Below are positions 1-64,000 of a DNA stretch of 64,000 nt, piece after piece. Positions within the stretch are counted from its first letter, which is position 1. The number at the start of each line of letters is the position of its first letter. The translations under genes and the position numbers were made by a program. This DNA is from a virus (lineage: Duplodnaviria; Heunggongvirae; Uroviricota; Caudoviricetes): IMG/VR virus record IMGVR_UViG_3300032330_001609, positions 69,975 to 133,974 of that record, one strand, 5' to 3'. Below the pieces are notes generated by a model. That model did no database searches, was not told the DNA's origin, and saw only the letters and a program-made list of their open reading frames with translations.

Positions 1-1965
1 GAGGATGTCTTATTATTAGATAGGGCGAGTAGAAATGTTGGGGATAAAATATTTGTGGATGTATTATCTTTAAAAAATAGGTTAACCGATATTAACGAAA
101 AAACGTCACTTTATACTATGATTGCGACAATTCTAACGGAAAATAATTTCCAAATTATGAATTTACCATCATATGTTAATTTTTATAATGTTCAAGATGT
201 GTCTAAAAATCCGACACCAAGAGCCGAAGGTAGTTTAGAGTTTGCTAACACTTTATTTGGTAATTTTATGAATGTTGATTACAGAGAATCATCACCAAAA
301 TTAGTATGTTTTTATGCGGGTAAAACAAGTGAACAATTAGCGATTAAAAATAATGTTGACTATAGATTTAGAGATGATGCTTTTGATTTAACAAGACAAG
401 GTGATAATCCATTGTTTGAAAATCAAATGGGTAAAAAAGATTGGGATAAATCAAATAAAGTTGTTGGTTTTAATGTTGATATTGGTCCACAAAATCAATC
501 AATGTTTCATTCATTCCAAGTTGCACAAAACCCCGGTTTAGCTACTATGGAATCATTAGCGGTTGAAACTCAAATGTCTAACTTATATAATGGTACCGGA
601 GGCGCTACTCAGAATATTTCACTTTATAACTTGTATAAAAATAGAAGTTATAGTTGTACTTTATTTATGATGGGTAACGCATTGATACAACCAACAATGT
701 ATTTTAATTTAAGACACGTACCAATGTTTTCAGGACCTTATATGATTCAAAAAGTTAATCATACAATTAGTCCGGGACATTTTGAAACAATTATTGAAGG
801 TGTAAGACAACCTACGGCTGAATTACCTAAAATTGAAAATTTTATTCAGGTATTAAAACAAACGTTATTAACCTCAATTATTCAAAAAATACAACAGGAG
901 AAAACTACCACATCGGCTAGTACGACTAATGTTTTAGGACAAACTGCTCAAAATTATGATTCACAAAAAGGTAATGATAAGATGAAAACATCTCAAACAC
1001 CTAAATGTGTCATTAGTGATACTAGATATAAAGGATTTTCACCGGTTGATAATCCTGCAAAAACAAGTGAAAATTTTAAAACAGTTATTGATTCAATTAA
1101 GTCATCTACCGATAATGTGTCGTTACAATATACTGTTTTTGCAACATTATATATTGCATCTAAAAATGGGGATGGTTTAACGGCTTATGATAACAATTAT
1201 TCAAACATAACATTAGACCAATATTGGGGTGAAGCATTTTCAAATAAATGGTTTAGTAATAAACAATTTTTCTGTGGTTCATTAAATAGTGATAAATCAG
1301 ATAGACCTTATATTAGTTTTTCAAATATAGGTGAATGTGTTGGAATGCTATGTGACAGATGGTTGCCTAAAATAGGTTTAATTAAAAATCTTGATACTCC
1401 GGATGATATTGCTAAATTTTGGATATTATATAATAACGCAAGTGATAAACGAGAGGATAATGTGTATACTACATATAATCCAACCGATTTACAAAATTTA
1501 AAAGATAAAATTACTGAATCATTTAAAATATTTAATCCGGCAACAGGTAATGTTACAAATACACAACCACCGGCAAATACAGTAGAATTTAACCCTTTTA
1601 TTGACAAATATAGTTATACTGTTTCAACTCCACCAATGTTAGAATCATTAAAAGTAACTATAGATTCTTCTCAAGGTGCTTGGGAAATATTTTCAGCAAG
1701 ATGGGATTATAAAATAACGGCACCTTGTAATGATGGTTCCGGTACTAATGCAGACCTTTCTGCTGGAAATATAAGTTCTAATAAACAACAATATTTTGTT
1801 GATACACAATCATTATTACAAGAATTTGACTGTGATAATAAAGATTTTAAAGGTGACTATACATTAACTCTAAGATTAAATGCTAATCCAATGACATCAA
1901 GTGGTCAACTTGATACAACGAGAAAACAGGCAATTAAAAGATTCTCGTATAATTTTAAACTTTAA
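1..1965 (+). CDS. Baseplate hub-like virion protein, 5'-truncated by the window edge
   Basis: Frame is open from base 1 (EDVLLLDRASRNVGDKIFVD...). The segment MYFNLRHVPMFSGPYMIQKVNHTISPGHFETIIEGVR resembles the C-terminus of gp27/gpD/VgrG-type hub folds. Baseplate wedge genes occur downstream. Confidence 0.5.
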   Translation, partial: EDVLLLDRASRNVGDKIFVDVLSLKNRLTDINEKTSLYTMIATILTENNFQIMNLPSYVNFYNVQDVSKNPTPRAEGSLEFANTLFGNFMNVDYRESSPKLVCFYAGKTSEQLAIKNNVDYRFRDDAFDLTRQGDNPLFENQMGKKDWDKSNKVVGFNVDIGPQNQSMFHSFQVAQNPGLATMESLAVETQMSNLYNGTGGATQNISLYNLYKNRSYSCTLFMMGNALIQPTMYFNLRHVPMFSGPYMIQKVNHTISPGHFETIIEGVRQPTAELPKIENFIQVLKQTLLTSIIQKIQQEKTTTSASTTNVLGQTAQNYDSQKGNDKMKTSQTPKCVISDTRYKGFSPVDNPAKTSENFKTVIDSIKSSTDNVSLQYTVFATLYIASKNGDGLTAYDNNYSNITLDQYWGEAFSNKWFSNKQFFCGSLNSDKSDRPYISFSNIGECVGMLCDRWLPKIGLIKNLDTPDDIAKFWILYNNASDKREDNVYTTYNPTDLQNLKDKITESFKIFNPATGNVTNTQPPANTVEFNPFIDKYSYTVSTPPMLESLKVTIDSSQGAWEIFSARWDYKITAPCNDGSGTNADLSAGNISSNKQQYFVDTQSLLQEFDCDNKDFKGDYTLTLRLNANPMTSSGQLDTTRKQAIKRFSYNFKL

Positions 1966-1983
1966 TTTTTCTTAACTAACAGA

Positions 1984-1990
1984 TATTTAT
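1984..1990 (+). promoter_or_regulatory. TATTTAT motif (candidate phage-sigma promoter)
   Basis: Intergenic, upstream of the ATG at 2004; recurring motif. Confidence 0.5.
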
Positions 1991-2003
1991 ATATAAAAAG
2001 ATT

Positions 2004-2228
2004 ATGAACACAAAATTAATATTAGACAATTATTTAGGTAAAACCACAAGAAGCTCAGAGAAAGATTTGGGTAATGGTTCTAAACAGGTTTGTGATTTAG
2101 ATACGGGAGATTGTTATACTATCAGAATGAAAGATGGTTTAATTGAACGTGTGGATAACACTATGAATACACATAAAAAAATCCAAGTTGAAACTGCAAC
2201 AGGTGTAAAACAATTATTAAACGGATAA
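2004..2228 (+). CDS. Hypothetical protein, 74 aa
   Basis: ATG in A-rich context; stop overlaps the next start (TAATG). Confidence 0.8.
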   Translation: MNTKLILDNYLGKTTRSSEKDLGNGSKQVCDLDTGDCYTIRMKDGLIERVDNTMNTHKKIQVETATGVKQLLNG

Positions 2229-2923
2229 TGAAAAAAATAGACAGTAGAATTATAGAGGAGATTGCTAGATACAATTCTATCAATCAATATATTGTTGAAC
2301 AAGACGCAACATTACCACCACCACCGGGAGAAGACCCAAATGCTCTTCCACCGGCTGACCCGGCTGCAGGGGCACCTGTAGACCCTAATTTAGCACCACC
2401 CGCACCGGAAGCACCAACTGCTCAACCTGTTGATGTTGCTAACGACCCGGATGTTGAAAAAATAGGTGATGAATCAAAACCTGAAACAGCACCTGAAACG
2501 GCTGGAGGTTCTACTGAAGAATTAGATATCACTGATTTGGTTAAATCTCAGAAAAAAGTTGAAGAAAAACAAGAAGAATATTTCAATAACTTATTCCAAC
2601 ACTTAACTGATTTAGAGACTAAATTAGGTGAAATGGATGGTATTATGACCAAATTAAACGACTTGGAGGCTAAAGTTGAAAAATATAGAGATAAAACACC
2701 TCAAGAAAAATTAGAGTTAAGAAGTTTAGACTCAGGACCATTCAATCAAAAGTTATCAGATTTCTTTGAAGATAAAGAAGAAGATATGGAAAAGTCCGGA
2801 AAAAATGAGTATATTTTAACTCAAGATGAGGTTGAGGATTTTTCACCTAGTGACATTAAAAAAACATTTAGAAATTTTGAAGATTCAATTCCCTCACAAG
2901 GAGGATTCCAAAAAATAGCATAA
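2228..2923 (+). CDS. Hypothetical protein with Pro/Ala-rich linker and coiled coil, possibly head-associated
   Basis: PPPPGEDPNALPPADPAAGAP low-complexity segment; heptad region LTDLETKLGEMDGIMTKLNDLEAKV; N-terminal IEEIARY..I..Y..EQ motif. Confidence 0.75.
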   Translation: MKKIDSRIIEEIARYNSINQYIVEQDATLPPPPGEDPNALPPADPAAGAPVDPNLAPPAPEAPTAQPVDVANDPDVEKIGDESKPETAPETAGGSTEELDITDLVKSQKKVEEKQEEYFNNLFQHLTDLETKLGEMDGIMTKLNDLEAKVEKYRDKTPQEKLELRSLDSGPFNQKLSDFFEDKEEDMEKSGKNEYILTQDEVEDFSPSDIKKTFRNFEDSIPSQGGFQKIA

Positions 2924-2956
2924 AATAAAACGGACTAAAAAAGTCCGTTTTATTTT
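2922..2956. terminator. Intrinsic terminator, potentially bidirectional
   Basis: Perfect 15-bp stem AAAATAAAACGGACT/AGTCCGTTTTATTTT with 5-nt loop, at the stop of 2228..2923. Confidence 0.85.
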
Positions 2957-2966
2957 CACAAAAAAT

Positions 2967-2995
2967 TTGACAAACACACGGCTGACACTTATACT
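2967..2995 (+). promoter_or_regulatory. Host-type (early) promoter of the SSB/recA block
   Basis: TTGACA-N17-TATACT between the terminator and the SSB start; same geometry as the Bacteroidota -33/-7 promoter. Confidence 0.7.
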
Positions 2996-3023
2996 TTTAT
3001 AAACTTTAAATATTTTAAACACT

Positions 3024-3878
3024 ATGGCGACAAATTCATTAGACGCAGTTTTGGCTCAATATGAGCAATCAAAACAAGGTAGTTCTTCTTCTACCTCAAA
3101 ATTCACACAAGAAGAGAGAATGAAAAAATACTTCGCGGCAATCCTTAACGATAAGGAAACCCAAGGACAAAGAAGATTAAGAATCTTACCTACAACAGAT
3201 GGTTCTTCACCATTCAAAGAGGTTTACTTCCACGAGATTCAAGTAGACGGAAAATTCCAAAAATTTTATGACCCGGGAAAAAACGACAATGAACGTTCAC
3301 CTTTAAATGAGGTTTACGAAGAATTACGTTCAACAGGTAAAGAAGCTGATAAAAAATTATCAACAAATTACTTATCACGTAAATTCTATATTGTTAAAGT
3401 TATTGATAGAGATAACGAGGCAGACGGAGTTAAATTTTGGAGATTCAAAGCTAACTACAAAAACGAAGGAATTTATGATAAAATTATTCCTATCTACAGA
3501 AACAAAGGTGACATCGCTGACCCTCAAACAGGTAGAGACCTTATCTTAGAATTAACTAAGGCAAAAACTCCAAAAGGTGCTTACTACACCGTGATTCAAA
3601 CTGTTATGTATGATGATGCAACTCCTGTTCACGAGGACAAAGAAATTGCAGAATCTTGGATTAACGATGAGTTAACTTGGGAAGATGTTTATTCTAAAAA
3701 ACCGGTTGAATACTTAGAGGCGATTGCAAGAGGTGAAACTCCAAAATGGAACTCAGAAAAAGGTGGTTACGATTATGGTAACTCTGATGAAGATGAAATG
3801 TCTTTTGGTGGGTCTAAACCATCAGTACCATCTGACCCACAAGCAGATGCTGAAGGAGATGACGATATGCCATTCTAA
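3024..3878 (+). CDS. Single-stranded DNA-binding protein (T4 gp32-like)
   Basis: RLRILP...PFKEVYFH core; acidic tail ending DDDMPF; adjacent to the recombinase. Confidence 0.75.
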   Translation: MATNSLDAVLAQYEQSKQGSSSSTSKFTQEERMKKYFAAILNDKETQGQRRLRILPTTDGSSPFKEVYFHEIQVDGKFQKFYDPGKNDNERSPLNEVYEELRSTGKEADKKLSTNYLSRKFYIVKVIDRDNEADGVKFWRFKANYKNEGIYDKIIPIYRNKGDIADPQTGRDLILELTKAKTPKGAYYTVIQTVMYDDATPVHEDKEIAESWINDELTWEDVYSKKPVEYLEAIARGETPKWNSEKGGYDYGNSDEDEMSFGGSKPSVPSDPQADAEGDDDMPF

Positions 3879-3886
3879 TAAAACAA

Positions 3887-3974
3887 ACTTGGACATATAT
3901 CTTGGACACTTGGATTATCCTGGTGTCCAAGTTGTCTAAAAAACTTACAAAAATTAACATTTACTTGGACATAT
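3887..3974. repeat. CTTGGACA x3 plus one inverted copy between ssb and recA
   Basis: CTTGGACA at 3888, 3901, 3964; TGTCCAAG at 3924; 12-mer ACTTGGACATAT identical at 3887 and 3963. Confidence 0.9.
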
Positions 3975-4971
3975 GGCAATAAAAAAGAAAACATTCTCTA
4001 TGGAGGATATTAAAGGAAAATACTCTACCAAAACAAAGTATAAAGACGAAAGTTATTATAATTGTGGTGAAGCGTTTATGGAGGCTTGTGGATTACCGGG
4101 ACCTATTATGGGTGGTATAAATATGTTTTTAGGACATTCAAACTCTTCAAAAACTACTGCGATGATTTTAGCGGCGGCTGATGCTCAAAGAAGAGGTGAC
4201 TTACCGGTTCTTATAATTACCGAGAAAAAATGGAGTTGGAAACACGCGGTTGAATTAGGATTACAAGCCGAACAAGATGAAGATGGTAATTGGGATGGTC
4301 ATTTTATCTTTAATGATAGTTTTGACTATATTGAACAATTAACCGATTATATGAATGATATATTGGATGCTCAAGAAAGTGGAGACATTCCTTATAACAT
4401 TTTATTTTGTTGGGATTCAGTAGGTTCTATTCCTTGTAAGATGACTTACGAAGGTAAAGGTGGAAAAATGCACAACGCGGCGGCACTTGCTGACACAATT
4501 GGTATGGGTATTCACTCAAGAATCTCTAAAACCAAAAAAGAAAGTGTTCCATACTACGCAACGATGGTTGTAATTAACCAACCTTGGGTTGACCTACCGG
4601 ACAATCCATTTGGACAACCTGAAATTAAAGCTAAAGGTGGTGAGGCATTATGGTTGGCATCAAGTTTAGTATTCTTATTTGGTAATCAGAAGAAAGCGGG
4701 TATTAACCACATTACAGCAACCAAAGGTGGAAGAACAGTGGCTTACGCAACAAGAACTAAAATCTCAGTATTAAAAAACCACGTTAATGGTATTTCATTC
4801 AAAGATGGTAAAATCATTGCGGTTCCACAAGGGTATATTAAAGACGATAAATCGGCTTTAGAAAAATACAAAAAAGAGTATTCAGAATTTTGGAATCAAA
4901 TCTTATCAGGTGATGGAGAAATCGTCTATAAAGATATTGTAACAAAAGTAGAAGAAGAGGACGAAGACTAG
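3973..4971 (+). CDS. recA: RecA/UvsX-family recombinase
   Basis: Walker A-like GHSNSSKT, Walker B-like LFCWDSVGS, VVINQ and KAKGGEAL motifs, TKISVLKNH. Confidence 0.85.
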   Translation: MAIKKKTFSMEDIKGKYSTKTKYKDESYYNCGEAFMEACGLPGPIMGGINMFLGHSNSSKTTAMILAAADAQRRGDLPVLIITEKKWSWKHAVELGLQAEQDEDGNWDGHFIFNDSFDYIEQLTDYMNDILDAQESGDIPYNILFCWDSVGSIPCKMTYEGKGGKMHNAAALADTIGMGIHSRISKTKKESVPYYATMVVINQPWVDLPDNPFGQPEIKAKGGEALWLASSLVFLFGNQKKAGINHITATKGGRTVAYATRTKISVLKNHVNGISFKDGKIIAVPQGYIKDDKSALEKYKKEYSEFWNQILSGDGEIVYKDIVTKVEEEDED

Positions 4972-4993
4972 TACTAACGTAAACAAACAAAAA

Positions 4994-5995
4994 GTGGTTA
5001 AAACACTATTAGTGGATGGTAACAATTTAACAAAAATTGGATTCCACGGGGTTAAAGATTTTTTTAATAAAGGTAAACACATAGGTGCCGTATGGCACTT
5101 TGTGAATACTCTTCGTAGACTTATAGACGAAGAAAACTACGACAAAGTAGTTGTGTTTTGGGATGGGGATGATAATTCCCTTACCCGAAAAACATTATAT
5201 CCCCAATATAAAGAAAAAAGAAGAGCGACCGACGATTTCAAAGACCAATCTTTTGAAGAACAAAAAGAGAGGATTAAAGAGTATTTGGAAGAGTGTTATA
5301 TAAGACAAATAAACGTCGAAAAAAACGAGGCGGATGATTTGATTGCTTATTACTGCCAAATCTCGGAGAACGAACAAAAGACCATATTTTCGGGGGATAA
5401 AGACCTTATCCAACTTATCTCGGACAAAGTGTCGGTATATTATCCAAAAACCAAACAAACATTCAGAAATGGTGACAAAGTAATGTTGGAATATTATTAT
5501 TTTCCACATCAAAATGTTCGTACCTATAAGATTTTATCGGGTGATAAATCCGATAACATTGATGGTATTTCCGGACTTGGAGAGAAAACACTCATAAAGT
5601 TTTTTCCTGAGCTACTTGAAAAAACGGTTTCTGTTTCCGATATTTTACAAAAGGCTGAAGTCCTACTAAAAGAGAATAGAAGTAATAAGACTTTACAGAA
5701 TCTATTATCAGGGAAAACAAGAACCGGAGTATATGGTGATGAGTTTTTTGAGGTTAACCAAAAGATTGTTGACTTATCAAATCCTCTAATAACCGAAGAA
5801 GGAAAAGAACTTGTTGAGTTGTATTATAAGGAAAGTTTGGACCCTGATGGGAGGGGTTATCGAAACCTTATAAAGATGATGATGGAAGATGGATTCTTCA
5901 AATATCTACCAAAGGGGGATGATGCGTGGGTGAATTTTGTTAGACCCTTTATGAAACTAACAAGAAAAGAAAAAAGAAATTACAAAAACAATTAA
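4994..5995 (+). CDS. 5'-3' exonuclease / flap endonuclease (PolI N-terminal, T4 RNase H family)
   Basis: LLVDGNN, VVFWDG, YPQYKEKR, EADDLIA, SGDKDL, GDKSDNIDGISGLGEKT motifs; GTG start. Confidence 0.92.
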   Translation: MVKTLLVDGNNLTKIGFHGVKDFFNKGKHIGAVWHFVNTLRRLIDEENYDKVVVFWDGDDNSLTRKTLYPQYKEKRRATDDFKDQSFEEQKERIKEYLEECYIRQINVEKNEADDLIAYYCQISENEQKTIFSGDKDLIQLISDKVSVYYPKTKQTFRNGDKVMLEYYYFPHQNVRTYKILSGDKSDNIDGISGLGEKTLIKFFPELLEKTVSVSDILQKAEVLLKENRSNKTLQNLLSGKTRTGVYGDEFFEVNQKIVDLSNPLITEEGKELVELYYKESLDPDGRGYRNLIKMMMEDGFFKYLPKGDDAWVNFVRPFMKLTRKEKRNYKNN

Positions 5996-6004
5996 TTTAA
6001 AATT

Positions 6005-6457
6005 ATGAAAGACCAAGATTCAGTAAAATTAGAATTCTTAATGATGGTAAACGATAACATTATCGTTCAAAGATTTTTCAACGTGAGAGAGTTTAACGAC
6101 AAAGCTAAAAATTCGTTAGAACTTTATGAAGTTATCCATACTTTGAAACAGGATATCCAATCTCAATTGGCGTTGAAAACCGTTACATATATGACAGACA
6201 ATATGTACGAAATTATTAACAATCCGGCTATTTTGGAAACGTCTTATATTGACGGACCGGAGTACTTTAACATCTTTATTAAACAAAATGATATGACAAT
6301 TTGTCATAGACAGATAGATGCAAAAGTATACCCTCCGAAGGTAAGATATACTGTAGATGTACGCCCACACCTAAAAAACTTGTTAATGAATTTGACTGAC
6401 ATTTTCTCGTCAAAAAATTTAACATACAATTATCTAGACGTTAACCTAAGTGTATAG
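6005..6457 (+). CDS. Hypothetical protein, 150 aa
   Basis: ORF fills the gap in the replication operon with an A-rich start context. Confidence 0.75.
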   Translation: MKDQDSVKLEFLMMVNDNIIVQRFFNVREFNDKAKNSLELYEVIHTLKQDIQSQLALKTVTYMTDNMYEIINNPAILETSYIDGPEYFNIFIKQNDMTICHRQIDAKVYPPKVRYTVDVRPHLKNLLMNLTDIFSSKNLTYNYLDVNLSV

Positions 6458-6464
6458 TATTTAT
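6458..6464 (+). promoter_or_regulatory. TATTTAT motif
   Basis: Intergenic, upstream of the helicase ATG at 6487. Confidence 0.45.
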
Positions 6465-6486
6465 CAAATACACTAATAAAAAATAT

Positions 6487-7878
6487 ATGGCGACAAACAA
6501 AAATTTTGAGTATCTAGGTAGCACATTTCAGCTACAATTATTAAACCAAATCATTGTTGATAAAGACTTCTCAAGGTCTATTATCGATGTGATTGAAGCA
6601 AATTATTTTGAAAATAAATATTTCAAACTAATCATCCAAATGATTAAGGAATATTATTCAAAATACGAACATACTCCTACGTTTGACACCTTAGAACAAA
6701 TTACAAAATCTGAATTACAACAACCTCTGGCAGCAAAAATCGTTATTGATACACTTAATAAGATTAAAGAAACGGATGTTGAGGGTGCGGAATTTGTACA
6801 AGAAAAATCAATGAAATTCTGTAAACAACAAGAGTTACAAAAAGTAATGGTTAAAGCTCAAAAAATCATCGATGCGGGTGAATTTGAGAGTTATGACACA
6901 TTAGAAGAATTGGTTAGTAAAGCTCTTCAGGTTGGGGAACACGATAAGGGAACTGAAAGTGTTTTTAGCAATTTGGATGAGGTTCTAAACGAAGATTATC
7001 GTCATCCGATACCAATGGGTATTCCGGGGATAGATAGACTCTTAAAAGGTGGTTTAGCGAAGGGTGAAATCGGTGTTGTTTTAGCACCAACTGGTGTTGG
7101 TAAATCTACTTTACTGACAAAAATCTCAAATCACGCATTTAATTTGGGATACAATGTTTTACAAATTTTCTTTGAGGATAACCCAAAGATTATTCAACGT
7201 AAACACATTACCTTATGGACAAAAATCCACCCGGATGAATTGTCTTTAAGAAAAGAGGAAGTTATGGAAAAAGTTAAGACTGTTAAGGAAACAATGACTA
7301 ATCAACTTATTCTTAAAAAACTTCCATCTGATACCGTAACAATGATGCAAATTAAAAATCAGATTAGAAAGATGATGTCTGAAGGAATAAAAATTGATAT
7401 GGTATTATTGGACTACATTGACTGTGTGGTTCCGGATAAAAACTTAGGAGATGAATGGAAATCTGAGGGTTCTGTAATGAGAGGATTCGAGGCAATGTGT
7501 CACGAGTTGGATATCGTTGGATGGACAGCAACTCAGGGTAATAGAAGTTCAATATCTTCAGATGTAGTGACTACCGACCAAATGGGTGGTTCTATCAAAA
7601 AAGCACAGGTTGGACACGTAATCATTTCCGTGGCTAAATCTCTACAACAAAAAGAAATGAAATTGGCTACAATCGCTATCACAAAATCACGTATTGGTGA
7701 TGATGGTGTTGTCTTTGAGAATTGTAAATTTGATAATGGTATGTTGGAAATAGATACAGAAAGTTCGGTAACGTTCTTAGGTCTTGAAGAACAAACTGAA
7801 GAGAGAAATAGACAAAGAATCAAAGATTTGTTAGACAAGAGAAAACAAAAAGAAGAACAAAAACAAAATCAAAATTAA
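6487..7878 (+). CDS. dnaB: Replicative DnaB-like helicase
   Basis: Walker [34 protein letters not shown] arginine-finger region. Confidence 0.9.
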
Positions 7879-7882
7879 AAAA

Positions 7883-8833
7883 ATGGAAGAAAAAATATTA
7901 AAAGAAAATCCGGATAGATTCGTGATTTTCCCAATTCAGTATAATGATATTTGGGAATATTACCAACAACATCAAGCGGCATTTTGGACGGCAGAAGAAG
8001 TTGATTTATCTAACGACATTAGAGATTGGGAAAATTTAACTGATAATGAAAGATTCTTTGTGAAGAATGTATTATCATTCTTTGCGGCATCTGACGGAAT
8101 TGTTAACGAAAACCTTGCGGAGAATTTCTTAAAAGAAGTTCAATACCCTGAGGCAAAATTTTTCTACGGATTCCAACTTATGATGGAGAACATTCACTCA
8201 TTAATGTATTCATTATTGATTGATACCTATATCTCAGATGCTGATGAAAAAGACGAATGTTTCCACGCAATCGATAGATTACCTGCGGTTCAGAAGAAAG
8301 CTAAATGGGCGTTAGATTGGATTGAAAATTCTACTTTCCAAGAAAGATTGGTGGCGTTTGCTGCGGTTGAAGGTATCTTCTTCTCAGGTTCATTCTGTTC
8401 AATCTTTTGGATGAAGTCAAGAGGTATTATGCAAGGTTTATGTAACGCAAATTCTTTGATTTTCAAAGATGAAAACTTACATTGTGATTTTGCAATTCAC
8501 TTATTAAATAATCACGTTGAGAATAGACCAAGTGAAAAACGAATTAGAGAAATCTTATTATCAGCTTTAGAGATTGAGAAAGAATTCATTACAGAATCTT
8601 TACCGGTATCATTGATTGGTATGAACTCAAACTTGATGAAACAATATTTAGAATTCGTTGTTGACGGATTACTAGTTAAGTTAGGATGTAAGAAACAATT
8701 TAACGTAGAACAACCATTTAAGTTTATGGAACAAATTGCGGTTGAAACAAAGGGTAACTTCTTTGAATCAAGAACTGTTGAGTACCAAAAAGCTAAATTA
8801 GGGGAATCATTAACATTTACAGACGATTTTTAA
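7883..8833 (+). CDS. nrdB: Ribonucleotide reductase class Ia beta subunit
   Basis: [32 protein letters not shown] (radical Tyr), [19 protein letters not shown]. Confidence 0.97.
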
Positions 8834-8834
8834 T

Positions 8835-11249
8835 ATGATGTCATTAAAGATAAGAAAAAGAGGGGGAGACGAAGTTTCGTTTAACCCTCAAAAAATTTAC
8901 AATAGAGTTAAACGTGCTGCTAGAGGATTAAACGTTAATGCTGATGAGGTATTCATTAAAGTTATTACGTCAGTTCCAACAGAAGGTGTTATTACAACTA
9001 AAGAGTTAGATAAATTGGTTTATGAGATTGCCGCAGCTTATACCGGTAGTCACCACGATTATTCAAGACTAGCGTCTTCAGTTGCAATTTCATCATATCA
9101 TAAAGAAACTGATGATAGTTTTTGTAATACAATGCACACATTACACGTTGATGGAATTATTAACGATAAGTTAATGGAAACTATTGAAAAATATGGTGTG
9201 GAAAATATTGATTCTGTAATTAATCACGAGAATGATTATAATTTTGATTATTTTGCGTGGAAATCATTGTCAGAAATGTATTTGTTGAAAACTCCGGAAG
9301 GTAGAGTAATTGAAAGACCTCAACATATGTATATGAGAGTTGCTTTATGGGTGACTAAATCATTTGAACAAGCGGTTGAGTATTACCAATCATTGTCAAA
9401 CCAACTTATTTCTCCGGCAACACCAATTATGATTAATGCGGGAACTAAAACTCCTCAACTAGCGTCTTGTGTATTGAAATACAATCACGGGGATTCTCGT
9501 AATGGGTTATTACAGACATTAAATGACATTTCAACTTATTCATCAGACGCTGCCGGTATTGGATTATGTATGTCTAACATTCGTAGTAAAGAAAGTAGAA
9601 TTAACTCATCAGGTGGATTTGCCGGTGGATTATTGAAGTATCTTAAAATTGTGAATGAATCATTACGTTTCTTCAACCAACAAGGAAGAAGACCGGGAAG
9701 TGCGGCAATCTACATTGAACCTTGGCACAAAGATATCTTTGACTTGTTAGACATTAAGAAAAACACAGGTGCTGAAGAGATGAGAGCAAGAGATTTGTTT
9801 ACATCTATATGGTTACCGGACAACTTTATGGAGGCGGTTAAAAATAATGACGATTGGTATTTGTTCTGTCCTAATGATATCTTAAAAGCGGGTATCAAAC
9901 CATTACAGGAAACTTATGGTGATGAATACGAACAAAACTACCAAAGAGCGGTTGAGTTAGGTTTAGGTAAGAAAGTTAAAGCACAATCAGTGTGGAATAA
10001 AATTATTGAATCACAGGTTGAAACCGGTGTTCCTTATTTATGTTCTAAGGATAATGCTAACAGAAAAACTAACCATCAAAACATCGGGGTGATTAAACAA
10101 TCTAACCTATGTAATGAGATTTACCAATATACTGATGAAGAAACTACAGCTATCTGTACTCTTTCATCTATGGTGTTGAAAAACTTTATTGTTAAAGGTG
10201 AGTTTGATTACAAATTACTTTATAGTGAGGTTAGAAAGGTTGTTAGAGCACTTAACAAAGTTATTGATATCAACAGTTATTCGACTGAACAAGGTAGAAA
10301 AGGTGGGTTGGAACAAAGAGCAATTGCTATTGGAACACAAGGACTTGCTGACGTATTCTATCTAATGGATTACATATTTACATCTGAAGAGGCGAGAAAG
10401 TTAAACAAAAACATTTTTGAAACAATCTACTTCGCGGCAATTACTGAGAGTATGGAATTATGTAAATCCGGAGAATACAAACCATATGACTTCTTTGAAG
10501 GGTCACCAATGTCAAAAGGAATCTTCCAATTTGATATGTGGGGATTAGATTACGAAGGATTAGGTGGATTATGGGATTGGGATACACTTAAATTAGAAGT
10601 GTCCAACCACGGGGTTTGTAACTCGTTATTCACGGCTCAAATGCCTGTTGCATCTTCAGCTAAGATTACGGGTTCGTTTGAAATGACAGAACCGGCTCAC
10701 TCGGCATTATTTAATCGTCGTGTTGTTGGGGGAGAAATCTTAATTGTTAACAAATACTTAATTACTGATTTTGAGAAAATTGGTATTTGGTGTGAGGATT
10801 TGAAAAATGAAATCATTATGAATGAAGGTTCAGTTCAAAACATTAATTTTAATCATTACCTTGATGTTGAGGATAAAAATTACAATAAGAAAGTTAAAAG
10901 AATTGAACATTTAATTCCAAAATACAAAACAATTTGGGAGATATCTCAAAGAGAACTTATTGATATGGCGGCTGACAGAGCACCATTCATTGACCAATCA
11001 CAATCAATGAATATCTATATGTCAAACCCAACATTATCAAAAATATCATCATCACACTTCCATTCTTGGGGTAGAGGATTAAAAACTCTTTGTTATTATG
11101 TTAGAACAAAAGCAATATCAACCGGAGCAAAACACTTGGCGGTGGACATATCAAAAGTAGGTCAACCAAAACCAATTGAAAAACCAACTGTTGATTTAAC
11201 ACAAAAACCTTCGGATTCCGAGTTTGAGTGTTTCGGATGTGGTTCTTAA
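8835..11249 (+). CDS. nrdA: Ribonucleotide reductase class Ia alpha subunit with N-terminal ATP cone
   Basis: ATP cone KIRKRGGDEVSFNPQKI; SCVL, QSNLCNEI, CTLSS, YYVR, C-terminal CFGC. Confidence 0.97.
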   Translation: MMSLKIRKRGGDEVSFNPQKIYNRVKRAARGLNVNADEVFIKVITSVPTEGVITTKELDKLVYEIAAAYTGSHHDYSRLASSVAISSYHKETDDSFCNTMHTLHVDGIINDKLMETIEKYGVENIDSVINHENDYNFDYFAWKSLSEMYLLKTPEGRVIERPQHMYMRVALWVTKSFEQAVEYYQSLSNQLISPATPIMINAGTKTPQLASCVLKYNHGDSRNGLLQTLNDISTYSSDAAGIGLCMSNIRSKESRINSSGGFAGGLLKYLKIVNESLRFFNQQGRRPGSAAIYIEPWHKDIFDLLDIKKNTGAEEMRARDLFTSIWLPDNFMEAVKNNDDWYLFCPNDILKAGIKPLQETYGDEYEQNYQRAVELGLGKKVKAQSVWNKIIESQVETGVPYLCSKDNANRKTNHQNIGVIKQSNLCNEIYQYTDEETTAICTLSSMVLKNFIVKGEFDYKLLYSEVRKVVRALNKVIDINSYSTEQGRKGGLEQRAIAIGTQGLADVFYLMDYIFTSEEARKLNKNIFETIYFAAITESMELCKSGEYKPYDFFEGSPMSKGIFQFDMWGLDYEGLGGLWDWDTLKLEVSNHGVCNSLFTAQMPVASSAKITGSFEMTEPAHSALFNRRVVGGEILIVNKYLITDFEKIGIWCEDLKNEIIMNEGSVQNINFNHYLDVEDKNYNKKVKRIEHLIPKYKTIWEISQRELIDMAADRAPFIDQSQSMNIYMSNPTLSKISSSHFHSWGRGLKTLCYYVRTKAISTGAKHLAVDISKVGQPKPIEKPTVDLTQKPSDSEFECFGCGS

Positions 11250-50189: not shown

Positions 50190-51935
50190 ATGAAAAAATT
50201 AGAAAAATCTACCGACTTAATTGTTTATGACCATTTTAGAAAATATTCTGAAGAGATAATTATTGAACCAAAAAAATCAGAAAATTTTAGAATACAAAAT
50301 ATTTTAACAACATCTTCTAAAAAAGGAACTGATAAAGTTGGTTTTCCTGAATATATTATTTCTTTTAAAAATCATCCTAATTTTATTTTAGTTATTGAGG
50401 ATAAAAAAGATAGAATATTACATCAAAGTACTAAATTAAACCAACCAATAAAATATGCGGTTGATGGGGCGATTCATTATGGTAAAAAATTATCAAAAGA
50501 ATTTGATGTTATTTCTATTGGTATTAGTGGTATATCTGAAAATGAATTATTAGTTACTCATCATCTACATTTAAAAGGGTCTACTGAGATAATTAAACTA
50601 GAATTTAATGAACTAAAAACTCCGAAAGAATATATTAAATTTTATGAAACAGATGATAGAAAAAATCGTCAAGATTTTGAAAATCTTCTTAAATTTTCCG
50701 ATAATCTAAACATAGAATTATTTAAGACTTATAAAATTAAGGAAGATGAAAGAGCTATTCTTGTTGCGGCAATATTAGTTAGTTTAAAGAATCAAGGTTT
50801 TAGAAATTCATATAAAATTTCAACGATGTCAAGTGAGTTATGTGAGAATATTTCCAATGCGGTTAGAACTGAATTACGAAAAAAATTACTTAATGAAAAT
50901 TATGTAAATATGGTATTGAGACATTTAGATTTTATATGTTTATCACCTAAATTCAGACAAGACATTAATTTACTTAAAAAATTAATTTATGATATTGATG
51001 AAAATGTTAACTGTTATATTGTAAATACACAGTTTCAAGATGTTTTAGGTAGTTTATACGTTAAGTTTCTTGAAAAGGCTAATGGGGACAGACAACTTGG
51101 TATTGTTCTAACACCTGAACATATTACTAAATTTATGTGTAGGTTATGTGAATTAACTGATGAATCTTTATTATTTGATAATTGTTCAGGAACCGGTGGA
51201 TTTTTATTATCGGGTTCAAAATTTAATTCAAAGGTTACTGGAATTGAATATGAACCAAAAATGTTTACTCTTATGGTTTTAAATATGATGATTCATAATT
51301 TACCATTAAATAATATATGGCAAGGTGATTCATTAGTTGATGAAAGTATTTTATCTGAGATACAAGATTTAAAACCAAATGCCGGAATTTTAAATCCCCC
51401 TTATGATGGGAGAGAGTGGGAATTTATAGAAAAAAATATTAGTAGACTCCAAAAAAAATCAAAATGTGTTGCAATCGTACCTATGTCTTTAGTGACTTCA
51501 AATGAGATTAAAAACTTAGAAAATAAAAAAAGAATACTTGAAAATCATACATTAGAGGCGGTATTTTCAATGCCAAATGAATTATTTTTTAATTCAAATA
51601 CTTCAGTTGTAACTTGTATCATTGTCTTGACGGCACATATTCCACATTCGGAGGATAAAGAAGTTTTTTTTGGGTATTATAAAGATGATGGGTTTGAAAA
51701 AAGAAAAAAATACGGGAGATACGATATAAATTCTCAATGGAAAGAAAAAGAAAATGATTGGTTTTGGACTTATAAAAATGGACAAAGTAAACCCGAATTT
51801 AGTGTTACTAAAAAAATTACATATGAAGATGAGTGGTGTGCGGAATATTTTTTAGAAGTTGATTATAGTACAATTACTTCTGAAGACTTTGTTAAAATGT
51901 TAAAAAAATACGCAGCTTTTAAAATTATTAACTAA
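50190..51935 (+). CDS. Type IIB (BcgI-like) fused endonuclease / N6-adenine methyltransferase subunit
   Basis: N-terminal PE(54)...EDK(70-72) nuclease motif; YAVDGAIHY; GIVLTPEHI; motif I DNCSGTGGFL; motif IV NPPY. Confidence 0.8.
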   Translation: MKKLEKSTDLIVYDHFRKYSEEIIIEPKKSENFRIQNILTTSSKKGTDKVGFPEYIISFKNHPNFILVIEDKKDRILHQSTKLNQPIKYAVDGAIHYGKKLSKEFDVISIGISGISENELLVTHHLHLKGSTEIIKLEFNELKTPKEYIKFYETDDRKNRQDFENLLKFSDNLNIELFKTYKIKEDERAILVAAILVSLKNQGFRNSYKISTMSSELCENISNAVRTELRKKLLNENYVNMVLRHLDFICLSPKFRQDINLLKKLIYDIDENVNCYIVNTQFQDVLGSLYVKFLEKANGDRQLGIVLTPEHITKFMCRLCELTDESLLFDNCSGTGGFLLSGSKFNSKVTGIEYEPKMFTLMVLNMMIHNLPLNNIWQGDSLVDESILSEIQDLKPNAGILNPPYDGREWEFIEKNISRLQKKSKCVAIVPMSLVTSNEIKNLENKKRILENHTLEAVFSMPNELFFNSNTSVVTCIIVLTAHIPHSEDKEVFFGYYKDDGFEKRKKYGRYDINSQWKEKENDWFWTYKNGQSKPEFSVTKKITYEDEWCAEYFLEVDYSTITSEDFVKMLKKYAAFKIIN

Positions 51936-51936
51936 T

Positions 51937-52881
51937 ATGGAAAAATTATCTGAAATATTTGATATTGTTTATGGAAATCAATTTGATTTAAACAAAATGT
52001 CGGTTAGTAATGACTCATCTATTAATTTTGTTAGTAGAGGTGCAACAAATTTAGGTGTTGTTAGTAAAGTTGATAGGTTTAATGATAAAGAACCATTTCC
52101 TGCTGGATGTATTACAGTTGCATTAGGTGGGTCTGTATTAAGTTCATTTGTTCAAACTAACGAATTTTATACCGGTCAGAATATAAAGGTTCTAAAACCT
52201 AAATCAAAAATGAGTTTTGAATTATTAGTTTATTATGCGTTATGTATTGAGAAAAATAAATTTAGATATTCATCTCACGGTAGAGAAGCTAACGTTACTT
52301 TAAATGATATTATAGTACCTACTTGTAATGAAATTCCATTTGACCGTAATTTTAACATTGAAACTGAGATTGATAATTTAAAAACACCTAAAAACAATAA
52401 TCAAATATCGTTAAACAATATTGTATTTAAAAATTTTTTAATTAAAGATATATTTGAAGTTACAGGAACAAAAACAACCCCAAAACAACAACTAATTAAA
52501 ATTGGTAAAGGTGAATATCCTTATATTACAACATCTAGTAAAAATTTTGGACAAAATGGTAAGTTTAATTATTTTACGGAGAATGGTCACGTATTAACAA
52601 TAGAATCCGCAGTAAATGGTGTTTGTTTTTATCAAGAAAACAATTTTTCAGCTAGTGACCACGTTGAAAAATTAACATCAAAATATGAAGTAAGTAAAGA
52701 ATTTTTGATTTATGTTTCAGTATTGGTTAATAAACAAACATTTAGATTTAATTACGGTAGAAAGGCAAATCAAGATAGAATAAAAAATATGGTAATTAGT
52801 CTTCCGGTGATTAACGATGATATTAATTATGAATTTGTTGATAATTTTATTGGTTCTTTAGATTATTCAGGTCAAATTTAA
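51937..52881 (+). CDS. Specificity subunit with two target-recognition domains (HsdS/BcgIB-like)
   Basis: Two similar halves starting KLSEIFDIVYG and LIKDIFEVTG, each ending in a YGRxAN-like motif. Confidence 0.82.
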   Translation: MEKLSEIFDIVYGNQFDLNKMSVSNDSSINFVSRGATNLGVVSKVDRFNDKEPFPAGCITVALGGSVLSSFVQTNEFYTGQNIKVLKPKSKMSFELLVYYALCIEKNKFRYSSHGREANVTLNDIIVPTCNEIPFDRNFNIETEIDNLKTPKNNNQISLNNIVFKNFLIKDIFEVTGTKTTPKQQLIKIGKGEYPYITTSSKNFGQNGKFNYFTENGHVLTIESAVNGVCFYQENNFSASDHVEKLTSKYEVSKEFLIYVSVLVNKQTFRFNYGRKANQDRIKNMVISLPVINDDINYEFVDNFIGSLDYSGQI

Positions 52882-60686: not shown

Positions 60687-60874
60687 TGAATAATATTGAT
60701 ACAATTTATTTATTTGTATTCATTTTTTCACTATTGACGGTTTTAAGAACCATCGCTAGGATAATGAGTTCCCTATTTTCTAACCCCCCAAAGAAATTTG
60801 AGTGGTATAGAGGGGAACTTGTATATCTTGGATTAGCAATAACATATTGTTTAACCTATTTAATACAAAAATAA
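60686..60874 (+). CDS. Small two-TM membrane protein
   Basis: IYLFVFIFSLLTVL and LVYLGLAITYCLTYLI; coupled start (TAATG). Confidence 0.65.
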   Translation: MNNIDTIYLFVFIFSLLTVLRTIARIMSSLFSNPPKKFEWYRGELVYLGLAITYCLTYLIQK

Positions 60875-60876
60875 TT

Positions 60877-61305
60877 ATGAGTTTATATAAAGAATTTTCT
60901 TCGTTGTTACCTTATCTACAATCGGTTAGAAAATTAGAGAGTTACTTGAGTTTTGATGTTAGTTTTCCGACAACTTGGAAACTACCAAAAAAATTCGTAG
61001 ATGAAGAAAAAGTGATGGAACAAACTAGCAAGATGGAGGGTCACAGATTTTTTTCATTTGTTGCTGAGATTAGTGAAGAATCTGTTGAGTTGTTAAGTAA
61101 TAACTTGAAAAGTATTATTAAGTACAATCACGATAGAGAAGAAAAAGAAAGATTATTCCAAAATAAAGTTGAGGAACTTAAAAATATTTTTGAGAAACAA
61201 GATTTAACAAGTTTGAAAAACCTTAACTTTGAATTAAAGACGGGTAAAATTGAATTAGAAGATGAAGAAGAAGGTATTGAAAGAGTTGGAGTTACTGGAA
61301 AATGA
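60877..61305 (+). CDS. Hypothetical protein with C-terminal coiled coil
   Basis: ATG 60877 follows the previous stop and is preferred to TTG 60847. Confidence 0.7.
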   Translation: MSLYKEFSSLLPYLQSVRKLESYLSFDVSFPTTWKLPKKFVDEEKVMEQTSKMEGHRFFSFVAEISEESVELLSNNLKSIIKYNHDREEKERLFQNKVEELKNIFEKQDLTSLKNLNFELKTGKIELEDEEEGIERVGVTGK

Positions 61306-61459
61306 CTCAATAAAGAGTCAAATACAGCTCCAACAAGAAAAAGAAAAAATAATAAACGAGTTGAAGAAACTCAAGAAAGAAGATATACTTCCGAAAGCAC
61401 CGGAACCACCTAAAAAATTAACATTATGGGAGAGAATCAAAAAAGTATTGATGGAATAA
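61262..61459 (+). CDS. Small charged helical protein, 65 aa
   Basis: Own ATG; overlaps both neighbours. Confidence 0.55.
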   Translation: MKKKVLKELELLENDSIKSQIQLQQEKEKIINELKKLKKEDILPKAPEPPKKLTLWERIKKVLME

Positions 61460-61677
61460 TTGAAAAGTTGGCTTTAATTGCAGATGGATTAGAAGAGTTA
61501 TTTCCTGATGGTACAATTGCGGTAGCGTTAGAACTTAAAGAACCTGAGTTTAAGAAAGTTCAAAAAAATTTTAGAACAATAGACCACTCTCACAAACAAT
61601 TTAAGATTGATTTGTCGGGTGTTGAATTTATGTTTTTACTAAATGAGTCGTCGACTGACGATGTAGATAATTCTTAG
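61426..61677 (+). CDS. Hypothetical protein, 83 aa
   Basis: Own ATG; 3' end overlaps the convergent gene. Confidence 0.6.
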   Translation: MGENQKSIDGIIEKLALIADGLEELFPDGTIAVALELKEPEFKKVQKNFRTIDHSHKQFKIDLSGVEFMFLLNESSTDDVDNS

Positions 61678-62269
61678 AAAATCCTTTACTGATTAACAAA
61701 TCATAAAGGTATTTTCTTTGGGTTGTTGTGTAATCCTTCACAAAAATACAATCATTTCTTTTATCGTCCATAAATTTTTCGGATATAGTATCAATAAATC
61801 TTGACGCATCACTTTCATTTTTCAAAGTAATTAAATTAAATGTGTCATCATTTTGGACGATAATTTTATTATGTAACTTTGAAACTAATTTAAACCCGGT
61901 AGGGTCCAAATATAACTTAATAAACTCCTGTGAGTTTATTTTTTTGTTTGTAGTGGTATCTAGTATAAGTTCTTCTGTTTTATATTTAGATATTGAACTG
62001 ATGGTATAATCGTCATCCTCTAAACTAACTTTTACACGTCTTCCTAATTCATCTTTTAAGAATATAGGTAAGAAAGTCCCGGAAGTTTTTTCTAACAATG
62101 CTAGTTCATAACTACATAATGAACCATTTTCATATTCCTTTTCAAATAGAACATTATCACTTTCGGATAATAAACTTTCATAAAATTCATTTGCTCGTTT
62201 ATGAGTTTTGAATTTATTGATTATTTTCTTTTTTATCTTATTTTTGAATAATACTATTTGATAGTTCAT
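61628..62269 (-). CDS. Hypothetical protein, 213 aa
   Basis: Long minus-strand ORF divergent from dnaJ. Confidence 0.75.
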   Translation of the reverse strand: MNYQIVLFKNKIKKKIINKFKTHKRANEFYESLLSESDNVLFEKEYENGSLCSYELALLEKTSGTFLPIFLKDELGRRVKVSLEDDDYTISSISKYKTEELILDTTTNKKINSQEFIKLYLDPTGFKLVSKLHNKIIVQNDDTFNLITLKNESDASRFIDTISEKFMDDKRNDCIFVKDYTTTQRKYLYDLLISKGFSKNYLHRQSTTHLVKT

Positions 62270-62287
62270 AATAATAAATTAGTTTTA
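62257..62287 (+). promoter_or_regulatory. Candidate host-type promoter for dnaJ
   Basis: TTTG-N19-TAGTTTTA. Confidence 0.35.
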
Positions 62288-62309
62288 TATTAAATATAAG
62301 TAAACAAGT

Positions 62310-63224
62310 ATGGAGAATTTTTATCAGACATTAGGTGTTAGTGAAAATGCAACTCAAGATGAGATTAAGAAGGCTTACCGAAAATTGGCGGTAGAACATC
62401 ATCCGGATAAAGGTGGGGATGAGAATAAGTTTAAGAAAATATCTGAAGCTTATGATACAATAGGTGACGAAACAAAACGAAGTCAATATGACAACCAACG
62501 TTCTAATCCGTTTGGTGGAGGTTTTGACCCGTTTGGTGGTGGATTTAATCCATTTGGTGATATGTTTAGTGGTCAACAAAGAAAACGTGCGGTACCGGAT
62601 AAAATTGTTGATGTGACTATTGGTGTGTTTGAAAGTTATAATGGTTCAGATAAGACAATTTCATATTCTCGTAATCATATGTGTGGGGATTGTTCGGGAA
62701 CCGGTGGAGACAAAGTAAATTGTACTGTATGTAGTGGTTCAGGTTTTATCGTTCAAAGAATGGGAACCGGAATGTTCAGTCAGGTATTTAGACAAACTTG
62801 TAATAGTTGTGCGGGTAGAGGATTTAATTTTACTAAAATTTGTGGTGGATGTAGTGGTAATGGAGTTAAAAGTTCCGTGGATAGTATTACGATTAAATTA
62901 CCTCACGGAATTGACGACGGACAATTTTTAAGACTTCAAAATAAAGGAGATTGGAAAGATAATATGTATGGTAATTTAGTCCTTAGAATTAGAGTTCAAT
63001 CAGAAAAGAATTTTACTAAGAATGGTGATGATTTAATTTATGATGCTTACTTTAGTTTAAATGATTTGAAGAAAGATACTTTAGAAATACCACATCCAAA
63101 AGGGAATATATCAATAAAACTACCAAACCATTTTGATAGTTCAAAACCCCTTAGAGTTAAATCCAAAGGGTTTAATAACGGAGATATGTATATCAATCAG
63201 TTTATTGTATTTGATAGGTCTTAA
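62310..63224 (+). CDS. dnaJ: DnaJ co-chaperone (J domain, G/F region, four CxxCxGxG repeats, C-terminal domain)
   Basis: FYQTLGV...IKKAYRKLA..HHPDK; GGGFDPF; CGDCSGTG, CTVCSGSG, CNSCAGRG, CGGCSGNG. Confidence 0.95.
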   Translation: MENFYQTLGVSENATQDEIKKAYRKLAVEHHPDKGGDENKFKKISEAYDTIGDETKRSQYDNQRSNPFGGGFDPFGGGFNPFGDMFSGQQRKRAVPDKIVDVTIGVFESYNGSDKTISYSRNHMCGDCSGTGGDKVNCTVCSGSGFIVQRMGTGMFSQVFRQTCNSCAGRGFNFTKICGGCSGNGVKSSVDSITIKLPHGIDDGQFLRLQNKGDWKDNMYGNLVLRIRVQSEKNFTKNGDDLIYDAYFSLNDLKKDTLEIPHPKGNISIKLPNHFDSSKPLRVKSKGFNNGDMYINQFIVFDRS

Positions 63225-63442
63225 TAACCAAAATATTGAAGTAGGTCTTTAACTAATTTAATAGTCCCATAAATTGTTGCAAATAAAAAATAAACAGATA
63301 TAAGTATTAGAATTTTTTGAGTTTTTCTAACTTGTTGTTCCGCTTCTTTACCTGTTTTGCAAGTTTTACAGTTTTTAGGTTGATTTTGTGTTAGATTGAT
63401 GTCTTTTTCTTCAATAATCTGTGCGTCAATTGGTTCTTTCAT
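63221..63442 (-). CDS. Small membrane protein with CxxC
   Basis: CKTCK then TM ILILISVYFLFATIYG. Confidence 0.65.
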   Translation of the reverse strand: MKEPIDAQIIEEKDINLTQNQPKNCKTCKTGKEAEQQVRKTQKILILISVYFLFATIYGTIKLVKDLLQYFGY

Positions 63443-63495
63443 AATGATATAATTTAATATTATAAAATATAATAAAAATTTTTTGAATGTGAAAC

Positions 63496-63525
63496 TTGCT
63501 TTTTCACTTTTTATTTCGTATATTT
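63496..63525 (+). promoter_or_regulatory. Candidate host-type promoter
   Basis: TTG-N19-TATATTTA before ATG 63542. Confidence 0.45.
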
Positions 63526-63541
63526 AAAAAAAAGAAAAATT

Positions 63542-64000
63542 ATGGCATTATCGTACATCGGAGGTAAATCTAAAATAGGTAAATGGATTGTTCCATTCAT
63601 ACCAACTGACATTGAAACATACATAGAACCATTCTCAGGAATGTTTTGGGTGTTTTTTAATATGGACTTAACTAAATACCCAAATTTAAAAGAAGTTGTT
63701 TATAATGACTTTAATCCACTTAACTATAACTTATTCCAATGTCTTCAGAATCCGGATAGATTATTAGAAGAAGTGAATAACATTCCTTGTCAACAAAGAG
63801 GGGAATTTCCAACACCGGACATCTACAGAGAACAATTTATCAGCTTTCAAGCTGAAATTTTTGACGAGAATTTAAACTTACAGGCTTACGATTATGTTAT
63901 TGCTGCGAAATATGCTTATGTATTGGCACAAGTGTTCTCAGGGTCTAAACCTGAAACTAGTAACTTCATTGACTTAAAAGGTAAATATAAGTCAAAGTAT
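63542..64000 (+). CDS. D12-class (Dam-like) DNA adenine methyltransferase, 3'-truncated by the window edge
   Basis: Translated by hand: MALSYIGGKSKIGKWI...TYIEPFSGMFWV...VVYNDFNPLNYNLF. Confidence 0.88.
   Translation, partial: MALSYIGGKSKIGKWIVPFIPTDIETYIEPFSGMFWVFFNMDLTKYPNLKEVVYNDFNPLNYNLFQCLQNPDRLLEEVNNIPCQQRGEFPTPDIYREQFISFQAEIFDENLNLQAYDYVIAAKYAYVLAQVFSGSKPETSNFIDLKGKYKSKY

Follow-up and report, generated by a model that had tools for sequence, protein, structure and literature searches.

Restriction-site avoidance is well described in non-temperate double-stranded DNA phages (Rusinov et al. 2018, PMC6286503), and the phage studied here shares with those genomes the full elimination of two short palindromes (GATC and CATG, bias <0.1), the partial loss of other palindromes, and a set of purged words that is specific to the lineage. 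It differs from them in that one strongly purged word, CCAG/CTGG, is an asymmetric 4-mer for which no cognate enzyme was found in the literature searched. There is a superficial likeness to the footprint of very-short-patch repair, known from Dcm/Vsr in E. coli and, in a CCGG context, from V.NgoAXIV (PMC6116569), in that the T variant of a word is low and the C variant high; unlike in that footprint, no Vsr was found in the phage, nonsilent frames are purged, the redistribution is not toward C, and the host-like genomes are unmarked. A surplus of CCGG in an AT-rich genome is also on record for Helicobacter (PMC4687349; PMC10423294), whereas the surplus in the phage is accounted for by CCAG elimination together with forced Pro-Gly coding. 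In size (relatives are 309-322 kb), GC content (31-32%), and a probable Flavobacteriia host, the phage agrees with the bS21-encoding freshwater jumbo phages of Bacteroidetes (Chen et al. 2022, PMC9723584), an article in which a term search found no mention of restriction. The close relative G001 carries bS21 amid its head genes, on the reverse strand, but this region is absent from the 73%-complete record analyzed here.

That record is ∼215 kb (214,776 bases) of a giant (jumbo) phage from a freshwater lake, and our window is a stretch of 64,000 bases within it. Across the window (1..64000), GATC and CATG do not occur at all (183.6 expected for each), CCAG occurs eight times (78 expected) and CTGG 24 times (92 expected), leaving 32 residual sites, and CCGG occurs 195 times (39 expected). 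An earlier note, made by reading the window, had reported this pattern; its hand counts for positions 1-10000 are exact (35 CCGG, 7.3 expected; five CCAG+CTGG, 29.4 expected), and the Markov correction it called for gives z-scores of -10.0 or lower for all four depleted words (GATC -16.0, CATG -14.8, CTGG -10.4, CCAG -10.0) and of +6.0 for CCGG, which under the maximal-order model is only 1.32-fold in excess. Over the whole genome, evenly along its length, we count no GATC (about 633 expected, 641 with Markov correction), no CATG (about 633 and 613 expected, respectively), 89 CCAG+CTGG (673 expected, or 0.13 of the Markov expectation), and 698 CCGG, which is five times the number expected from base composition and 2.7 times that expected after a codon shuffle.

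Amino-acid and codon composition, the explanation that would have undone the note's claim, does not account for the bias: against synonymous codon shuffles, the window has 177 CCGG versus 63, nine CCAG versus 122, and 20 CTGG versus 115. The bias persists after shuffling genome-wide too, and it is present outside open reading frames. Codon choice follows it in part. As had been noticed, His is always CAC before G (45 CAC, 0 CAT) and Asp is always GAC before C (79 GAC, 0 GAT). The further claim that Thr, Ser, and Ala before Gly use xCC-GG is only partly right: C leads for Ala (A 8, C 14, G 13), is level with A for Thr (A 48, C 46), and is far behind A for Ser (A 51, C 12).

The explanation we favor, with a probability of roughly 70%, is selection against three DNA words, a restriction-type avoidance in which CCGG serves as an escape route; this agrees with one of the note's two alternatives, avoidance of at least three motifs of which one is non-palindromic, so that its overall interpretation is supported in part. 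Unmodified words in the double-stranded phage DNA would be attacked within the host population, probably Flavobacterium, by agents that we infer to be nucleases. GATC and CATG, both purged to zero, belong to the classical Type II targets (MboI/DpnII/Sau3AI types and NlaIII types, respectively) and are restriction-modification motifs in Helicobacter as well; their loss is textbook. CCAG/CTGG shows a restriction-site-like purge of about 8-14-fold and would be the asymmetric 4-base target of a putative host system, one that 5-methylcytosine may block. The purge is nevertheless incomplete, and the 89 remaining sites count against an efficient cutter as the agent, since such a purge would protect little. 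No special process would be required to generate CCGG: it is among the silent ways out of CCA-G and xCT-GG, on top of a base level shared by the family (1.8-2.7 times the first-order expectation where relatives retain CCAG), and this exit would stay open because the clade is not under CCGG restriction.

The host is probably Flavobacterium. Two array spacers match genomes of a large Flavobacteriaceae genus at 28 of 29 bases; an exact spacer search of GTDB returned no match, a search allowing three mismatches gave matches at chance level, the spacers of the relative G002 had no convincing match, and the glutamine-synthetase neighbors named no host. Systems recognizing CCGG, CCNGG, CGCG, and GATC have been described in Flavobacterium (PMC11837570). 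Nucleases of the DpnII and HpaII families are present in the genus, the former in only three of 151 genomes, and no candidate nuclease for CCAG emerged.

The relatives of the phage provide a natural experiment, in which the words switch on and off. The DnaB-like helicase (6487..7878, + strand, in the window) served as marker to gather 80 related loci. GATC is near zero in 47 loci of relatives, whereas 31 have it at more than 0.3. The loss of CCAG is not tied to the excess of CCGG: sister clades have no CCGG, and 11 loci without CCGG still avoid CCAG. ACAGC is absent from G013. An apparent tolerance of CCAG within CCWGG in G003 and G013 is partly an artifact, because a ban on CCGG forces Pro-Gly into CCWGG; Pro-Gly itself shows no clear depletion. 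In Mel-JY01 CCGG is likewise up and CCAG down, but CCTG is also missing there and the pattern is a different one.

The new observation is that tolerance of CCAG goes with a gene. In 84 loci of relatives we find a C5 methylase resembling M.MpeI, and at every locus of the helicase set that shows both flanks it occupies the slot between recA and an exonuclease gene. In the phage this slot is empty: only 22 bases (4972..4993) separate the UvsX/RecA-like recombinase (3973..4971, + strand) from the 5'-3' exonuclease (4994..5995, + strand). CCAG is tolerated in 81 of the 84 loci with the methylase and avoided in all 57 without it (median CCAG share of CCNG 0.45 versus 0.14, with a maximum of 0.28 in the latter), an association that depends on few independent phylogenetic events; the exceptions, L343, L368, and L372, carry the methylase yet avoid CCAG. 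The best solved-structure match of the enzyme is M.MpeI (PDB 4DKJ, E 4.5e-42). M.MpeI is a CpG methylase, and CpG is lower in the methylase-bearing phages (0.64 versus 0.83), but a pure CpG specificity would leave CCAG/CTGG uncovered. No bacterial source of the gene was found with this query in 301 genomes of the host genus, and polymorphisms gave no motif for a deamination footprint of the enzyme, in a signal confounded by codon position. A tentative reading, which we think possible but would not put at even odds, is that CCAG/CTGG is read by an undescribed anti-phage nuclease, widespread in Bacteroidota and perhaps in other phyla, whose action 5-methylcytosine prevents; some of the jumbo phages, on one branch, would respond by purging the word and those on another by carrying the methylase. 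If so, the specificity of this methylase would name the host system, and a single cloneable protein makes the putative defense directly testable.

The single asymmetric word might instead be a sum of longer known targets over mixed hosts (CCWGG/CCNGG, ACTGG, CCAGA, CCCAG, and Type III motifs) or part of the degenerate palindrome CYRG, which we regard as unlikely. The depletion does vary by flank (CCAGA 0.02, CCAGT 0.06, CCAGG 0.10, CCAGC 0.22) and is graded between relatives (0.13, 0.35, 0.58), F. psychrophilum often carries CCNGG systems of the ScrFI type, and CTAG, CCAG, and CCGG go up together in methylase-bearing relatives. However, all eight one-base extensions of CCAG/CTGG are depleted in both G000 and G001, the differences by flank track codon constraints (Ala-Gly, Pro-Ala), CCTG/CAGG is not depleted in the phage, and CYRG would require selective shielding, because CCGG is abundant here. 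Avoidance of Type III sites in the style of T7 and EcoP15 does not fit, since the leftover sites are not in a single orientation (36 CCAG and 53 CTGG, interleaved). CCAG and CTGG are equally scarce on the coding strand, which excludes an mRNA-level endoribonuclease target and points to DNA as the target.

Selection against the word itself predicts losses irrespective of reading frame, and CCAG/CTGG is depleted in every codon frame. The note's other alternative was a repair footprint, in which a CCGG C5 methylase and Vsr, of host or phage, would mend T:G mismatches toward C and convert CTGG/CCAG to CCGG. In vitro, V.NgoAXIV does cleave a CTGG/CCGG mismatch (PMC6116569). Within the host genus, a cassette of vsr, C5 methylase, and HpaII nuclease is present in one genome (G290), and about ten genomes combine high CCGG with lowered CCAG. 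Silent frames are also about twice as depleted as nonsilent ones (0.063 versus 0.139), and CCA|G of close relatives reads G here in 66 of 96 cases. Yet in the four frames where T-to-C alters the amino acid there are 18 sites against 130 expected from the outgroup phages, which are methylase-bearing relatives under pressures of their own (0.14; P = 6e-12 to 0.005), and in a pool of 57 loci, C precedes Trp at 0.03 versus 0.30 and Gln CAG follows C at 0.00 versus 0.15. The lost bases are redistributed proportionally rather than preferentially toward C: xCT|GG goes to A at 0.51 and to C at 0.28, where conversion would give C at 0.70. A model of elimination is better than one of conversion by 157-320 log-likelihood units, with a near-exact fit for Pro before G[ACT] (G = 2.6 versus 337). 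In the two main frames 508 CCGG are observed, where the outgroup rate gives 263, elimination 623, and conversion 1050; with Pro-Gly (115) and C|CGG (12), coding sites total 635. Polarizing the substitutions between orthologs was rejected, third positions being near saturation. CCAG depletion moreover continues in loci without CCGG, the spacer-matched host-like chromosomes have neither phage bias (CCAG 0.96-1.43, CCGG 0.47-1.19), and Vsr is sparse in the genus (three of 30 CCGG-rich and one of 30 CCGG-poor genomes) and was found in none of five host-like draft genomes; the search for Vsr and C5 methylase genes that the note had proposed found neither in the phage or its two complete relatives, G001 and G002. 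The frame and redistribution tests largely refute repair, which we now hold to be improbable, and the CCGG-up, CTGG-down look is a by-product of site elimination. The frame test can be applied again elsewhere, for instance to Helicobacter, whose CCGG surplus is unexplained.

A mutational origin, in which CCAG/CTGG is hypermutable owing to the phage's family B polymerase (PolB) or its own adenine or cytosine methylases and the nonsilent frames are cleared by second-order selection, is in our judgment very improbable. The phage encodes this polymerase and three methylase systems, and a family-wide depletion of GpC suggests some mutational bias; but a single hypermutable position cannot account for empty frames in which three different positions of the word vary, second-order selection could produce a sevenfold loss only with a hot spot well in excess of the 16-fold loss in silent frames, the D12 methylase does not follow GATC, and no hot context at CCAG emerged from a weak scan of polymorphisms. 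Least probable of all is positive selection of CCGG as a methylated self-mark or signal, for which the Helicobacter surplus recorded as unexplained (PMC4687349), an enrichment of Arg CGG after C (odds ratio 4.5, P = 5e-4), and CCGG at 1.4-6.1 times in 80 of 80 loci with this clade's N4/N6 methylase variant (median 0.86 with the other variant, variant and clade being confounded) might speak, but CCGG falls short of the passive prediction (508 versus 623) and has no extended consensus around it. Returning to elimination with CCGG as the exit, every Pro-Gly codon pair holds CCAG/CTGG or CCGG, so that CCGG is its sole exit; the Arg CGG enrichment leaves a small CCGG surplus beyond this explanation. 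The flanks of CCGG are plain AT-rich sequence, and a HIP1-like extended repeat was rejected.

The N4/N6 methylase (genome positions 144509-145366) may shield CCGG. A D12-class adenine methylase, whose 5' part lies at 63542..64000 (+ strand) with the gene running past the window end, was rejected as the cause of GATC loss, since it occurs both where GATC is absent (47 loci) and where it is present (31 loci). The three methylases have no close characterized homolog from which to name a specificity. The DpdA/TGT-family gene (PF01702) of 7-deazaguanine-modified phages was not found in G000-G003 or G012. T4-like replication and tail genes are present, and the relative G002 has an IceA/NlaIII-type nuclease, a cassette rare among viral contigs. 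A BcgI-like (Type IIG/IIB) nuclease-methylase subunit (50190..51935, + strand) adjoins the specificity subunit of the system (51937..52881, + strand), a cassette found in no other viral contig searched; it lies within an island of 25.7% GC with no counterpart in the relatives examined. Further low words in the genome are GpC (rho 0.52), TCGA, GCGC, TTTAAA, and CTTAAG. The island has neither GATC nor CATG but contains 11 TTTAAA.

The record (214,776 bases, 32% GC, 73% complete; the window is 69975-133974 of it) comes from a T4-like jumbo myophage with genes for SSB, UvsX, an exonuclease, a helicase, ribonucleotide reductase, and baseplate proteins, and with a family B polymerase of its own. Genome-wide, GATC and CATG are absent (~633 expected each), CCAG and CTGG together occur 89 times against 673 expected (Markov), and CCGG occurs 698 times: 5.0 times the base-composition, 3.3 times the dinucleotide, 2.7 times the codon-shuffle, and 1.38 times the maximal Markov expectation. 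The depletion and excess described in the earlier note are thus real, and its hand counts were exact. Further low words are TCGA, GCGC, GGCC, TTTAAA, and CTTAAG, and GpC is low in general (rho 0.52).

Two explanations had been proposed: avoidance of the words, or Vsr-type repair that turns CTGG into CCGG. The latter change is silent only in the frames xCT-GG and CCA-G (hyphens mark codon boundaries); in xxC-TGG, xxC-CAG, CTG-G, and xCC-AG it alters the protein, so repair alone would be unable to empty these four. They hold 18 sites, where the rate in relatives retaining CCAG predicts 130. The frequency of C preceding Trp is 0.03, compared with 0.26 preceding other T-starting codons, and the CAG share of Gln after C is 0.01, compared with 0.13. 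Selection acts against the CCAG/CTGG word itself, on both strands and also outside genes.

The fate of the lost bases was judged against a baseline of CCAG-tolerant relatives (outgroups). For Pro before G followed by A, C, or T, the third-position shares of A, C, G, and T are 0.03, 0.06, 0.47, and 0.44; elimination with proportional refilling predicts 0.03, 0.07, 0.48, and 0.41, and conversion would predict 0.80 for G. The C share in Thr/Ser/Ala-Gly is 0.28 (elimination 0.41, conversion 0.70), and CCGG in the two main frames is counted 508 times, against 263 at the outgroup rate, 623 under elimination, and 1050 under conversion. Pro-Gly coding forces either CCAG/CTGG or CCGG; CCGG is used in 115 of 132 cases here versus 17 of 117 in the outgroups. 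Together with 12 C-CGG sites, the 508 and 115 account for all 635 coding CCGG. A small surplus is left: Arg favors CGG when C precedes it (odds ratio 4.5). An early impression of directed conversion, with A going to G, was removed by the outgroup baseline, because G before G is favored family-wide.

The phage carries an in-frame repeat-spacer array outside the window (L010:9660-9930; genome 209660-209930), whose spacers 1 and 2 have 28/29-base matches to genomes of one large Flavobacteriaceae genus; one match falls in a gene reading as dnaN. Related arrays are held by both complete relatives (309 and 322 kb; G001, the first, and G002). G001 has bS21 among its head genes, and the group can therefore be assigned to the freshwater bS21 phages of Bacteroidetes (PMC9723584). 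Family, genus size, and that study together point to Flavobacterium as the probable host genus. Systems of F. psychrophilum include CCGG, CCNGG, GCSGC, CGCG, and GATC (PMC11837570).

The repair idea was worth testing since one genome of the host genus (G290) holds a vsr, C5-methylase, and HpaII cassette and since Vsr activity of the CTGG/CCGG type is known in vitro (PMC6116569). Vsr occurs in three of 30 CCGG-rich versus one of 30 CCGG-poor genomes of the genus. None was seen in five spacer-matched draft genomes, and sampled spacer-matched genomes bear no footprint (CCAG 0.96-1.43, CCGG 0.47-1.19). Searches of this record and of both complete relatives turned up neither a C5 methylase nor Vsr; the phage methylases are a D12 adenine methylase, a TSPPY-type N4/N6 methylase, and a BcgI-like pair. 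With the genes not found, the protein-changing frames emptied, and the lost bases not directed to CCGG, we reject Vsr-type repair. Nine host-genus chromosomes (G042, G084, G131, G167, G239, G241, G253, G267, and G322) have two- to fourfold CCGG and less CCAG than is normal for the genus; in most of them neither Vsr nor HpaII is present.

Avoidance is favored, since CCAG/CTGG is selected against in all frames and the purged words differ in a lineage-specific way among relatives. We give a probability of roughly 70% to a reading in which host enzymes would attack unmodified GATC, CATG, and CCAG/CTGG, the words would be lost through silent changes, and CCGG would accumulate passively because in this lineage it escapes restriction. 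That nucleases do the attacking is our inference. Purging of such words is already known as a general phenomenon. What is out of the ordinary is an asymmetric four-base target, CCAG/CTGG, for which no recognizing enzyme was found in the literature searched; a candidate antidote gene, a C5 methylase, renders the case testable.

Among 80 loci collected through the DnaB-like helicase, the words vary independently. The phage's own clade has no GATC, almost no CATG, low CCAG, and high CCGG; in sister clades, 11 loci have no CCGG and still avoid CCAG. GATC is kept by other relatives, with a bimodal distribution (near 0 or near 1), and other asymmetric words are purged in some, such as ACAGC (0 in G013). 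This switching of words shows the same pattern as lineage-specific restriction pressure (PMC6286503).

A C5 methylase occupies the recA-exonuclease interval in all six CCAG-tolerant helicase loci where that interval is visible; in this phage the interval is 22 bases. In a wider set, the CCAG share of CCNG is 0.21-0.67 (median 0.45) at 84 C5-methylase loci, with no CCAG loss in non-silent frames, and 0.01-0.28 (median 0.14) at 57 empty-slot loci, with near-total loss there, a comparison in which host range and methylase are confounded, as carriers are mostly one clade. The solved structure closest to this methylase is that of M.MpeI. Three carriers with an apparently intact methylase still avoid CCAG and have no CCGG; they are perhaps recent recipients. 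That a CCAG nuclease and its methylase antidote both exist is, in our judgment, less likely than not. The N4/N6 methylase variant of the phage's clade accompanies CCGG at 1.4-6.1 times expectation in 80 of 80 loci (median 0.86 with the other variant), a hint, confounded with clade, that it self-protects CCGG. In relatives, an insertion of ~350 residues is common in both the C5 and the N4/N6 methylase (L095 of G016, L097 of G014; P0241-P0276), and some insertions match LAGLIDADG/intein Pfam families. Inteins usually reside in conserved, needed genes.

Between an SbcC-like gene and the sigma region, relatives carry other R-M cassettes: a putative nuclease with an N4/N6 methylase in G014 (L107:793-2157), and, in G002 (L108:891-2259), the clade member that has CATG (0.25 of expectation), a methylase together with a nuclease of the IceA/NlaIII type. 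Here the slot holds the BcgI-like pair (window 50190-52881), which lies in an island of low GC content for which no counterpart was seen in the relatives examined. The island contains no GATC or CATG (~6 expected each) yet 11 TTTAAA, which marks it as a recent arrival, though one already cleared of the two strictly avoided words.

GpC is low in the window (1-64000) and in all relatives (rho 0.52-0.7), unlike host-like chromosomes (1.1-1.2); family-wide, GGC, TGC, AGC, and CGC make up 0-4% of the codons for their amino acids and NNG is shunned before C. One candidate explanation is PolB, which the phage itself encodes. Other lowered or purged words include ACAGC in G013 (L306-L308), CGAG and GAATTC in G012 (L280-L285), and ACGT, CCCG, GATATC, and GTNNAC-type words in G014 (L286-L289). 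Microcystis phage Mel-JY01 (L011, PP395634.1, 30001-80000), too, is heavily purged and has surplus CCGG (5.4-fold): GATC and CTAG are 0, CCAG 0.22, and CCTG 0.47, and GGACC, GAATTC, GATATC, and TTATAA are absent.
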